Of a DNA stretch of 64,000 nt, positions 5,262 through 58,096 are shown in pieces (position 1 is the first letter of the stretch; each line of letters starts with the position of its first letter). Origin of the DNA: Carcharhinus longimanus (lineage: Eukaryota); assembly GCA_030264375.1 (NCBI GenBank), contig JASCQW010000027.1, positions 100,592,214 to 100,656,213 of the forward strand, read 5' to 3'. The notes below the pieces were generated by a model, which was not told the origin of the DNA, searched no databases, and saw only the letters and a list, made by a program, of their open reading frames with translations. The position numbers were made by a program, and so were the translations under genes.

Positions 5262-5330
5262 GTAAGAAGTCTGACAATGTCAGACTTCTTACAGTGTTTA
5301 CCCCAGTCCAATGCTGGCATCTCCACACCA
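5262..5330 (+). mobile_element. Collapsed copy of palindromic Penelope-like non-autonomous element
   Basis: Perfect 15-bp inverted repeat GTAAGAAGTCTGACA-a-TGTCAGACTTCTTAC plus tail CCCCAGTCCAATGCTGGCATCTCCACA; flanked by direct repeat CAGGTACTCATTAGT (5249-5263, 5331-5345). Confidence 0.75.
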
Positions 5331-17499: not shown

Positions 17500-17600
17500 T
17501 GGCTCTATTCCCTTAGCAGAGATGCTGTCAGACCTGCTGAGATTTTCCAGCATTTTCTGCTCTTGTTTCGATGCCAACATCCACAACATTTTGCTTTTGT
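17500..17600 (+). mobile_element. Fragment of a second Penelope-like terminal-repeat family
   Basis: CAGAGATGCTGTCAGACCTGCTGAGATTTTCCAGCATTTTCTG shared with 54360-54403. Confidence 0.55.
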
Positions 17601-18026
17601 CAACATTTTAATCTCATTGACTGTGGGCAGGGTGTACTGATATCACTGAGGAGATTCCTGTGAAATGCATCAGCTAGCCACCATTGATCGCCGGCCAGTT
17701 GTTCTATTTGTAGGAATCGATCAGGAGATGTATTTTTGTCTTTAATACTGTCCCAACAGAGGTACAACATCAACACAGTAGCTTATCTGGTCCATATTAT
17801 AAATTGCTTTTAAACTACATGTTTTAGTGCAGAAACCTATAAAGCACAGTAAAACACTTAATTTTGCAAAAGCTGCTGCATTTATTCAACCAATAAACAT
17901 TTTGCAGCCCTTGATGTGCTCCTGCAGACTCCAACACAAGCCTTTCTCCAACCTTGCCGTAACTCAATAATGTAAAAAGAAAGAAAATAAAGGCCTAGGT
18001 TTATATGCCATCATTAATGGTGTCTG

Positions 18027-18398
18027 AAGTCTCACAACACCAGGTTAAAGTCCAACAGGTTTACTTAGTCGCACAAGCCACTAGCTTTCGGAGCGCCGCT
18101 CCTTCATCAGATGAGCATGAGGTGAAGTCATGAAGGAGTGGCGCTCGAAAAGCGAGTGGCTTGTGCTACCAAATAAACCTGTTGGACTTTAACCTGGTGT
18201 TGTGAGACTTCTTACTGTGTTTACCNNNNNNNNNNNNNNNNNNNNNNNNNNNNNNNNNNNNNNNNNNNNNNNNNNNNNNNNNNNNNNNNNNNNNNNNNNN
18301 NNNNNNNNNNNNNNNNNNNNNNNNNGTTGGACTTTAACCTGGTGTTGTGAGACTTCTTACTGTGTTTACCCCAGTCCAACGCCAGCATCTCCACATCA
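18027..18398. mobile_element. Palindromic Penelope-like non-autonomous element (inverted pseudo-LTR pair)
   Basis: ~80-bp inverted arms 18027-18108 and 18129-18210, then ~40-nt unpaired tail ending CATCTCCACATCA; N gap 18226-18325. Confidence 0.8.
18079..18113 (-). ncRNA. Minimal type I hammerhead ribozyme motif
   Basis: Minus strand CAT-CTGATGA-A-GGAGC-GGC-GCTCC-GAAA-GCT-A-GTG: conserved CUGAUGA and GAAA core, 5-bp stem II, palindromic AGCU stem III, UH site (CUA), short stem I. Confidence 0.7.
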
Positions 18399-18839
18399 TT
18401 ATTGATGGCACCATAGGGCTTTACGACCAGCGAAGTGCGTCCCTGTTGTAGGATGTTTCCAGCCACTGAAAAATCATTCTCCAATGGACTAAGTCTGCTC
18501 ATGTCTGAATTCTCCTTGTTTTAATGAGATGTAATTGCAAGCATGGGGAGCAAGAACTGGAGCAACTGAATGTGCATGTTTGCAACTTGAAAGTAAATGC
18601 TAATTGGCAATTTTACATTTGAGCGGTTGCTTCCAAGTCACGTTGGCGAGGCTGTCGAGGTTTTGGTTGTCAGCCAGATCATGCAAGGAGGCCTGCACTG
18701 CCTGAGAAAGTGGTGCATCCTGCTCCTCTTTGCACACCACATTTCCAATGGGTATTCTCCTTGTCCATTTATATTGAATTAAGTTTTGTTCAATGAGCCT
18801 CCACTCACATGGAATTAGATTGAATCTGCCTAAACTAAT

Positions 18840-48573: not shown

Positions 48574-48850
48574 TGATGTGGAGATGCTGGTGTTGGTCTG
48601 GGGTGGACACAGTAAGAAGTCTCCCAACACCAGGTTAAAGTCCAACAGGTTTACTTGGAATCGGAACACTGCCCCTTCATCAGGTGACTCCCATTTCATT
48701 AGTTGGGACTCGCACAGTAACTTCATTGCAGTGTTAATGTAAGCCTACTTGTGACACTAAACAAACTTTAAATAAACCTGATGAAAGAGCAGTGCTCCAA
48801 AAGCTTGTGATTCCAAATAAATCTATTAGACTTTAACCTGGCATTGTGAG
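48574..48850. mobile_element. Palindromic Penelope-like element with a V-SINE tail nested in its loop
   Basis: Same arms as 18027 element; degenerate hammerhead CTGATGA-A-AGAGC-AGT-GCTCC-AAAA-GCT-T-GTG at 48778-48809; SINE tail ~48712-48775; flanks ACATCAATCTT / ACATCTATCTT. Confidence 0.8.
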
Positions 48851-49279
48851 ACATCTATCTTCGGTTTTACATCATCAGGATAGAATGATACCCACTGATC
48901 ATTCAGCTATATTTATGCAAATGAGCTCTAGAAGAAACTCTCAGGCACATCATGTGGCTCTTGATTTCTTTCTGACTCTTAACCAAAAACAGCCTTGTTT
49001 TTGCTGCCAAACATAAGGACAGAGGCAGAATCAAAATAGGGAAAAAGGACATCAATGATAGGGAAGAAACTAACCGAATTCACTGGAACTGTCCTTGGCA
49101 AATCCTTGGATACACTTTTATATTTAGTGTCATACGTCATGATCCCAAGGTTTCAAAATGGCGGCAGAGCGTGGCAAATTCTTGCAAACTGTGCCCAGCA
49201 CACCTTCTAATCCTATCTTTTACTCTCATTTTATGCTTCTAAAACTTTATTCTCACACTTTTAAACTCTCTAACAATGC

Positions 49280-55120: not shown

Positions 55121-56522
55121 CATGTTGAGAACCACATCAAATGTTTAGTTTCCTGCCTTCCAAGCTTGTAACCAGTTCAAAGATCGAAGCTAACTTGTTG
55201 CAAACTACAGTTTGTAGCAAAGTATTAATAAATCACAGACCGCTTTGTTTGTTTCCTAAGACACGGAATCCACACAAGTGCCAAAGATCCAATTGCGGAA
55301 TCTCACATTATTTTAGATAAGTGACAAAGTTTTGATGTTGTTGTCAGTGGAACATTTGGATTGATAGAAGAATGATTTTGTCTCAGCGATGCATTTAAAA
55401 TCCTGTGGGAAGGAAAAAGTGTTTCTTTTGCAGGAAAAGCCCTTGATTAAAGTATTATGGGTTCACTTAAAGCAAGTATAATTTATTTCTATGAAGCTGT
55501 CAGTTTGCAACACATTGAAAATTGAATTGTATGTGGTGAGGTTGCATTAACATTTTATAAATGCAGTTGTCACTTGAGGAATTACGGAGGATTTTTATTA
55601 GAAACAGGCACATTCTTCCTTTTGACATTTACCATTAGTGCTTGCTGTACAATGCAATTTTCTTCCTCAAACATTTTTGAGCAGTTCTGAGTAATTTTCT
55701 GTCTTTTGAGGTTTATAAAACGGCATCAACCGCACCATTTTCCTTCAGCCAATGCACCACCCCCAACCCCATATCATATCTCATTTCCAGAATAAGTTGA
55801 TCACCATTTCCTCATTGACAGCTGAGAGGAGAGGACTGAAAATTCTATCTTTTCTTCATGTTGAGCAGTTCTGTCAAGCAAGCAGCAATATTTTCATCTC
55901 CTTACATGCAAAGCTAGAAACTCCTGAAGAAAAAAGGCACAACATTATCATCAGTAGCTCCTGTTTTTTGAATGCTATGGGCACTGTTTGCGGTCCAGAA
56001 CAGTGTCCACTGCACACTTCCGCTGTGATCCAGATCTGGCTCCACCTTTGTAAAGGACAAGCAAAAAATGTTGTTGACTCATGCCTGACATTGCCTTTGG
56101 TCCATGTGGGTATTCAAATAAGGGACTAATGCTTGCTTCAGGTCCCTGCTGCAACTTTGGTTTGTCTTGAGGCAGTCAGCACTTTTTGCCATGGCAAAAA
56201 ACGATGCTAAACACCAGACAAGCAAATAAAAAATGAATGATTGCCATAATCACTCCTGTTCCAGGCCCCGAGAACTCTGGCATCACCCCAGCCCCTGACT
56301 TCCAGGCCACGCTTCATTGATCTGGAGTTATTTGAGGACCCTGACTTCCGAGCAGCCCCACCCCTTAATGGCACATTCCGTGCTGAGTATCGTCTTATCC
56401 ATTTACCTAATCTACTCCAAAACCTTGTATGCAAATTGGAATGCTAATCTGTGAGGGCTCCTACTACAGTTTGATCGACATAATGAGTTGGAGGCCTGAA
56501 CTCTGGCACTGCTAACTGCTAA

Positions 56523-56570
56523 CAAATAAATAGGTTGGACTAAAACCTGGTGTTGTCAGACTTTTTACTG
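56523..56570 (+). mobile_element. Single-arm fragment of palindromic Penelope-like element
   Basis: CAAATAAATAGGTTGGACTAAAACCTGGTGTTGTCAGACTTTTTACTG; ACTGCTAAC at 56515-56523 and 56567-56575. Confidence 0.7.
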
Positions 56571-58096
56571 CTAACTCCCCCTTTCAACGCTTACTGTTAA
56601 TTCTGTGTAAGTTATGTGTCCAATAGTAATTACATCACACTTTCACAATTGATTTAAGAGACGAGAGACAAGAGGAACCAACAAATCATGTGTTTAAAGT
56701 TACTGTTTAAAAAAAAAGGTGAAGGTCAGGTTTTTAAAAAAAAGTTAACACAAAAAGATCTGGGCCAAGTGAATAAGAGGCGAGAAAGGAAGGTTGGGCA
56801 AGGACATCTGAAATATTGACCAATTAGGATTTCACATTTAACCTTTCAGTTGTGCAACTGGTTTTACTGAACCTCAGAACTGAAAAAGGTTGGCAAGCCA
56901 TCTGGACAACTGCATGTCTTGTGATGAGATGTGGTGATCTTGTTCGGCTCTGTTTTCAGGTTTCGTTGCACCTTTTATGCCAATTCATCATGACCACCAA
57001 TTGGTCAAATTCCTTCCCACCTTTATTATGTCGCACTTGGATGAAAGCAGTTTTGTTGCCAGCTTCTGAAAGCCTGTAGCAGATGTGTTGAGTTTCAATG
57101 GACTTGCACCACAAACTGTAGGCAGCCGGCATTGAACAATTACCTCTAGTTATGCTGAAGACAAATTGCATAATGCAGCCGCTGAAAGCAATTGTATGTG
57201 TAATTATCCTTCCAGAATAGTTACTGTACAGCAAGAATTGTGCAAAAATACAATTGTTTTGCAAACGCATATAATTACTAAACACAATGTTTGTATATGA
57301 TTGAAATAGTATAACCATACAAAGGAAACTGCATTTAACACAAAGATCCATTTAATTGGATAACGTTTAATTGGGTTACGCCTGTGCCAATTTGTAAAGT
57401 TTCATTGGCATCTGATGCCAATAATTCCTGGTTTTTGTTTTCCATTGCAGCCCTGTGATCGGGACGGGCGTTCAGTTATTAATCCTGCTTCTGATTGCCA
57501 TCTAGTGACTTATTTGGAACATGTTCTTGCAGAGGGCCGCTCCTGTTGTTAAATAGCTTGTTCAAACATTATTGTTTCTCGACTGAAGAATGGCGATGCA
57601 GTCCCGGAAGACACCTGACCTGTGTAGATCCATATCCGGTGCTATGTTTGTATCTTCCGAGGACGAGGAGGAACGAGAAAAGAGAGAAAAACAAATGATG
57701 GAAAGATAACCTGAAAGCTGAAGTTATGTCTATTTAGAGATAACTGCCACGTCAATGAGTGGTGTCAGTTTTTCTGTATCAAATGGAACTCCGAGGTAGT
57801 AGCATGGGGTCCTTTTTCAGTGGGCCAATTTTGTGTTGGAGGCAGTGACATTCCATTTAAAATACGTATCATGGAGGCTGACCAAGCAGTCACGTGGTGG
57901 CTGGCAATCATGGGGCATTCTCACGGGGGGAAGAGAAGCAAAAGGAGAGGCATACCTGCTGAATCTCTTTCTGAAATAGTCAGACAATTTATTGGATTGA
58001 GAGACGGGGAAAGAGACAGAAAGGGAGTGGGAAAACAAAATACATATTTTCAGAATCTCCAAGAATAATTAAACTCTGGAGGAATGAGAGTCCATC

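Follow-up and report, generated by a model that had tools for sequence, protein, structure and literature searches.

Introduction

Minimal hammerhead motifs have been described in the Penelope-like elements (PLEs) of metazoans, and dual motifs on opposite strands, 100-700 bp apart, have already been reported (PMC4209133). For the Poseidon element PAc of Anolis carolinensis, two internal start sites of reverse transcription that bracket the tail are described, together with cutting and extension of both target strands and an uncut RNA template (PMC11167929). A CX2-5CxxC linker between the reverse transcriptase (RT) and the endonuclease (EN) is reported to mark Neptune and Nematis elements (PMC8557442), and the internal promoter of the D. 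virilis Penelope is described as TATA-less (PMC2377424). In L1, an extra G has been described as the mark of capped full-length insertions (PMC11702581).

We analysed a palindrome in the genome of Carcharhinus longimanus, within a stretch of 64,000 nucleotides (the window) whose coordinates are used throughout. An earlier note, made from the letters alone, had read this palindrome as a non-autonomous, retrozyme-like element built from the pseudo-LTRs (pLTRs) of a PLE.

Results

The earlier note placed at 18027..18398 two inverted arms of about 80 bp around a spacer of about 20 nt, with an unpaired tail of about 40 nt. This layout was confirmed. The arms (18026-18107 and 18130-18211) are 82 nt each, 91% complementary and 22 nt apart, and the unpaired tail, ~42 nt long, is on one side only. 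The hairpin of the palindrome has a predicted energy of -139.5 kcal/mol (z -18.95), and equal stability was reached in 0 of 200 shuffles. The length of 372 bp did not hold. A gap of 100 N lies at 18226-18325 with an identical 45 nt on either side, and exact flank overlaps of at least 20 nt were found at 11 of the 83 100-N gaps examined, this one included. Therefore, the element is most likely ~228 bp long rather than 372 bp. Among the aligned contigs none bridged the gap, and those from the flanks entered the element by 8-29 nt only. The features of the locus are as follows.

18009 to 18021, plus strand: left copy of the target-site duplication, 13 bp, decayed (11 of 13 identical to 18394-18406)
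18026 to 18117, minus strand: left arm, an inverted pLTR copy without tail, its outer end possibly at 18022
18078 to 18114, minus strand: complete minimal type I hammerhead, read from the sequence
18118 to 18129, no strand: 12-nt junction filler, genome-unique, in which 6 nt are antisense to the stem I / core edge
18130 to 18225, plus strand: right arm, a dead pLTR copy that breaks off within the hammerhead core and carries AATAAA at 18172-18177
18212 to 18225, plus strand: first part of the tail, within the right-arm feature
18226 to 18370, no strand: 100-N assembly gap followed by a second copy of the 45 nt at 18181-18225, which was most likely duplicated falsely
18371 to 18398, plus strand: remainder of the one-sided tail, ending where the element has the start codon of its ORF
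18394 to 18406, plus strand: right copy of the target duplication, whose first 5-6 nt double as the tail end (microhomology)

The decayed target duplication flanking the unit had been missed by the earlier note; a match of 11/13 has a chance of 0.0015 (8x8 offsets, 20,000 random pairs). No coding exon stood out between 15,000 and 21,500 of the window, where frames were judged from the sequence alone. The AATAAA that follows the hammerhead in the right arm is altered in the left arm (18060-18065), and a GU-rich stretch lies downstream of it, like an LTR R-U5 border. Elsewhere in the window, at 48574-48866, two further arms of this family were found, again head-to-head, with a tail on one arm and a filler of ~111 nt between them. 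Further short pLTR fragments lie at 5271-5330 and 56511-56590, namely a tail-only piece and a diverged copy. The end of a different, very high-copy repeat (contig depth >10^6) lies at 17520-17575, ~450 bp left of the element. Assembly-wide, the exactly duplicated flanks at 11/83 100-N gaps were 24-77 nt long; such duplicated flanks will give readers of sequence alone false tandem repeats.

Given the adjoining 100-N gap with its 45-bp duplicated flank, the palindrome itself might have been an artefact of assembly. We consider this barely credible and rejected it. The arms differ at ~9% of sites, and an independent 88-nt contig of run X8 (organism C) covers the junction with 3 differences; the organism C flank has 14 differences and one insertion in 537 nt. 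The insertion is thus older than that split and is no assembly artefact. Only the 45-bp repeat is likely to be one.

Each arm is the pLTR of a PLE, putatively of Neptune type. The arm search of the genome gave 1370 first-look candidates, 40 of which were scored. The arm lies downstream of GIY-YIG coding DNA, in the same orientation, in 24 of 30 EN-selected loci, and the order RT, EN, arm was found within the flank examined in 9 of 30 RT-selected loci, the query locus counted. In locus L012, GIY-YIG coding DNA lies between inverted arms, and in L088 the tail continues into the ATG, the N-terminal region and the RT. The linkage of the arms to RT and GIY-YIG coding DNA anticipated by the earlier note is therefore real, as is its reading of an inverted PLE pLTR with a tail and a minimal type I hammerhead. 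On read-through translations with X, Pfam RVT_1 matched in L039 (E 3.9e-7) and GIY-YIG in L012 (E 1e-3, below the cut-off). Two short EN pieces had no Pfam match, the RT piece gave no PDB sequence hit below E 0.26, and the Atlas search returned RVT_1 clusters of a generic kind only. Many copies carry a C-x4-C-x2-C linker upstream of EN; by this motif, which Nematis also has, the element would be of Neptune type.

The EN+ architecture (RT, then a C-terminal GIY-YIG, in one ORF upstream of the pLTR) was thus found in related loci and is absent from this insertion. All copies seen were broken, and no intact full-length ORF was found among them. The pLTR overlaps the 5' end of the next unit together with a tail, as L088 and the bimodal 3' ends described below show, and the locus is an inverted, 5'-truncated copy with a flanking, decayed target duplication. 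In 80 arbitrarily spaced 10-kb stretches of large contigs (705 kb without N), we counted 61 arms in 42 insertions, of which 15 were head-to-head, 1 tail-to-tail and 3 direct. This extrapolates to ~140,000 insertions genome-wide. Two exact 28-mer cores had 1082 and 388 genome matches. In a single case (L074:2720-2810), an ORF end is fused, with a 2-nt microhomology, to sequence that starts at the predicted hammerhead cut; this joint could be either a deletion or a jump to cleaved RNA.

The complete hammerhead core that the earlier note saw in the left arm, on the minus strand, is present. It comprises CUGAUGA at 18110-18104 (C3 at 18110), an extra A at 18103 and GAAA at 18089-18086. Stem II has 5 bp, stem III is a loop-less AGCU, and stem I has 4 bp, 2 of them G-U pairs. 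A17 is at 18082, and cleavage is predicted between 18082 and 18081. The motif has the features of minimal PLE hammerheads: an intact core, an extra nucleotide after A9, G10.1-C11.1, and a palindromic, loop-less helix III. An Rfam scan at E up to 10, the check suggested earlier, gave no hammerhead family and chance matches only. The right-arm motif had been called decayed. It is indeed altered at G12 and U16.1, but it is not only decayed: the arm begins near A6 (18130), without C3-G5 and the 5' strand of stem I. The complete hammerhead is therefore confined to the minus strand, contrary to the claim of one on each strand.

We made two predictions by folding. First, the pairing probability of stem II fell from 0.88 in the hammerhead alone to 0.0 in the hairpin (minus-strand transcript), so the masking by fold-back proposed in the earlier note is predicted to occur. 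Second, when two 40-nt hammerhead copies were cofolded, the stem II strands cross-paired and no dimer with an AGCU helix III formed; folding thus lends no support to such a dimer. Pairing in trans, also proposed, is unlikely, since on either strand the sense arm has the antisense arm on its 5' side. The antisense arm is transcribed first in both cases.

Conservation of the core across genome copies was as foreseen, though the search pattern itself demanded a near-core. Among 64 copies not chosen on the core, found with that pattern and including 4-5 rows that look spurious, N7 alone varied freely (T36/C14/A11/G3), and G12 and C11.1 showed CpG-type decay. Such conservation would fit selection on master elements followed by neutral decay. 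In most copies, the antisense of stem I and C3-G5 is a consensus 5' splice donor (CAG/GTGAG), which is altered in this left arm.

We next consider whether the palindrome moves as a unit, as a non-autonomous retrozyme-like element that cleaves itself or pairs in trans. The complete core and the very many similar palindromes (15/42 random insertions head-to-head) speak for this reading. Nevertheless, the junction 30-mer matched the genome once at up to 3 mismatches, with no sign that the unit itself has multiplied, by which the reading is largely refuted. The junctions also vary among 64 distinct head-to-head pairs. No tandem array was found, and the direct repeat at the locus only straddles the gap. 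In place of direct tandem repeats with at least two complete hammerheads, there is one inverted pair with one intact motif; the second hammerhead is dead and the first is predicted to lose stem II in the hairpin. Furthermore, long copies have a TATA-like box 37 nt ahead of the core; the unit lacks this box and, with it, any evident promoter. We regard the retrozyme-like reading as very improbable. The unique junction and the decayed 13-bp target duplication indicate the product of one old insertion event and no family of retrozymes. The insertion has no ORF, and with no TATA-like box and a lone complete hammerhead that the antisense arm upstream is predicted to mask in any read-through RNA, it would be inert.

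The 5' ends of the copies were then compared. From 140 copies chosen on the exact core only, 7 with N at the boundary were left out (n = 133). In this core-selected set, 70 copies start at most 14 nt upstream of C3, with a peak at 5-6, and the rate of 5' ends was 6.8% per nt at 3-12 nt upstream of C3 against 1.2% at 13-44 nt (p 1.5e-14). The left arm of the locus ends 5-7 nt upstream of C3, inside this hot spot. Core-chosen samples cannot reveal ends within the core; in 134 anchors that were not core-chosen, a few of them false, 38 ended in the hot zone, 29 in the core and stem II (~1 per nt), and 6 in the next 25 nt upstream. No enrichment was seen at the cleavage site: 9/134 ends fell within 3 nt of it, of which several are artefacts from aligning a divergent subfamily, and this, too, speaks against a self-cleaving unit. 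In the core-selected copies L171-L310, the share of stubs differed by subtype, with 13/47 for the long-spacer type, to which the locus belongs, and 52/77 for the short-spacer types (Fisher p 2e-5).

The sequence around the hot spot is structured. In 33 of 45 long copies, the distance from the start of a TATA-like box to C3 is 35-38 nt, in most of them 37, which is 31 nt before the A at -6. The base preceding this A was C in 45/45 long copies. The first 100 of 989 non-C matches, counted by eye, comprised 62 with G, 24 with T and 14 with A at this position. Of 70 non-C copies retrieved, 10 were long copies (1 with G); from the other 60 we removed 35 in which the base was templated by the partner and 2 gapped copies. 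The untemplatable base was G in 17 of the 23 remaining short copies (p 2e-6). A control inside stem II gave a raw G:A of 19:12 (Fisher p 0.045 against 62:14), where 18/30 were substitutions in continuing copies and the others were 6:6; an upstream control, with 8 matches only, gave 4:4. Both controls were weak. Of the strand-switch joints in runs X1 and X8, those with the best support lie at -6 to -9. The left arm of the locus has G at -6. The same letter occurs in 3/45 long copies, and the locus G alone is therefore no cap mark. In solo short copies, AAT or T is, as an informal impression, frequent at the end of the flank that precedes the extra G; for PAc a cut preference for ATT, of which AAT is the reverse complement, has been reported.

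The cluster would fit run-off of reverse transcription at the 5' end of an uncut, capped RNA. We also weighed whether it is due to stalling of the RT, to a splice junction or to microhomology in stem I that is preferred in end joining, with no capped start. In the D. virilis Penelope an intron is reported to end at helix I (PMC4209133), and the partner arm can supply the junction G in 24/32 inverted cases. G was, however, also found in 9/15 solo copies, no upstream exon common to the short copies was seen, and the ends fall past the stem II hairpin and not before it. The TATA-like spacing of -31 argues in the same direction. Taken together, these alternatives appear fairly unlikely. As judged from such end distributions, the edges of many stubs likely mark the start of the element's capped RNA, and we infer that most stubs, this left arm included, would be run-off copies of the uncut capped leader.

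The 3' ends (203 ends) were bimodal, at ~6-16 and 43-51 nt beyond the anchor, two classes ~40 nt apart. In 45 of 64 head-to-head pairs, one arm had a tail end and the other a short end; 14/64 pairs were scored as short at both ends. These include the locus pair, whose tail is split by the gap. The tail-less arm reached further 5' in 21 of the 45 pairs, the tail arm in 16, and the two were equal in 8. The duplication score was at least 9 in only 15/28 pairs. At the locus, stem I to G5 is found only in the left arm and the tail only in the right.

A single cDNA that folds back and copies itself into the second arm could also create such pairs. Self-priming on an antisense template has been proposed (PMC3846280), and snap-back has been observed for R2 (PMC11371274). 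The spacer subtype was common to both arms in 41 of 43 scorable pairs, certain junctions are near-perfect palindromes with 0-2 nt between the arms, and the locus filler contains an antisense piece of the core edge, all of which would agree with snap-back. Against it, each locus arm has sequence that the other lacks, and the tail-less arm could not lie further 5', as it does in 21/45 pairs, had it been copied from a tail-bearing cDNA, unless a deletion followed. For these two reasons, two separate primings on the same kind of RNA are favoured, and snap-back seems quite improbable.

Discussion

The locus is probably a single old insertion of two head-to-head pLTR pieces, made by dual priming and run-off of uncut mRNA, and we hold this explanation with good confidence. 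The imperfect target duplication and the TATA-less internal promoter described for the D. virilis Penelope (PMC2377424) weigh against it. The PLE protein would have cut the two target strands at points ~13 bp from one another, and reverse transcription would have been primed at either end. The right-arm cDNA would have started at the tail end, beside the ORF ATG, and stopped, or been trimmed, within the hammerhead core. The left-arm cDNA would have started ~40 nt further upstream and run off where the uncut mRNA begins, probably 5-7 nt before the core and 31 nt after the TATA-like box. Both cDNA ends would then have been joined via the 12-nt filler.

Retroviral minus-strand strong-stop DNA is a short cDNA that starts internally and extends as far as the RNA 5' end. 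A similar reading of the whole family, to which we give even weight for and against, would make the pLTR LTR-like: TATA would lie at -31, the capped start would coincide with the first strand of the hammerhead and be followed closely by AATAAA, and reverse transcription would start before the ATG. Most of the ~10^5 stubs would resemble strong-stop cDNA copied from the uncut leader, and a dimeric RT-EN that uses both target strands as primers would have inserted them in pairs. A jump of such a cDNA to the 3' repeat would produce the long copies; if true, this jump would explain how the pLTR is regenerated, and the LTR-like reading would show that the hammerhead is uncut on the RNA that is copied.

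The locus itself is an ordinary dead repeat, and the mechanism at the family level is the only part worth pursuing. The stub family would be a large fossil read-out of the start of PLE RNA, of uncut copied RNA and of priming on both strands, and it tells precisely what to expect from CAGE and from the in vitro assay that already exists for PLEs. With ~10^5 insertions, one third of them hairpins, the family could also be a notable source of intronic double-stranded RNA.

Comparison with known systems

The layout of inverted pLTRs is already published; the run-off reading was not found in the literature searched. That search, which covered few subscription journals and neither Repbase nor supplements, returned no statement of a TATA/start-site or strong-stop reading of PLE pLTRs, none of a cap-derived G in PLEs, and no paper on this shark family. 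In the text consulted, PMC4209133 names no shark.

One likeness is to Pen2a_Av-type EN+ PLE insertions which, as described, share head-to-head pLTRs, a one-sided tail and a short target duplication, with TATA and an Inr-like motif in the pLTR where we find a TATA-like box (PMC3846280, PMC8557442). Here, in contrast, both arms are ~90-125 nt with no ORF, the copy number is ~10^5, and the tail is ~42 nt and ends at the ATG, whereas the Pen2a_Av-type tail is described as ending inside the ORF. The hammerhead shares with those described for metazoan PLEs the extra nucleotide between 9 and 10.1, the G10.1-C11.1 pair, the palindromic loop-less 15.2-16.2 and a short helix I; its stem II has 5 bp against the 7-8 bp given for schistosome motifs (PMC4209133).

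PAc likewise has two classes of 3' ends around the tail and keeps the hammerhead uncut. Its hammerhead is described as overlapping the ORF start, with reverse transcription starting within the ORF (PMC11167929), whereas here the hammerhead lies in the 5' leader, reverse-transcribed copies end before the ATG, and the Neptune-type Cys linker is present. Animal non-LTR retrozymes are described as non-coding, with a type I hammerhead and kinship to PLE pLTRs, features shared with this locus, but their units, each with a hammerhead, are repeated directly in tandem, where this locus has one inverted pair and one intact minimal motif (PMC7229834; bioRxiv 10.64898/2026.07.22.740005). L1 twin priming, as described, shares priming of reverse transcription from both target ends and the extra G that marks run-off at a capped end (PMC11702581); it copies two different parts of one RNA, whereas both arms here hold the same leader. 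Finally, the primer here would be the target DNA, unlike that of retroviral strong-stop DNA, which is a tRNA.
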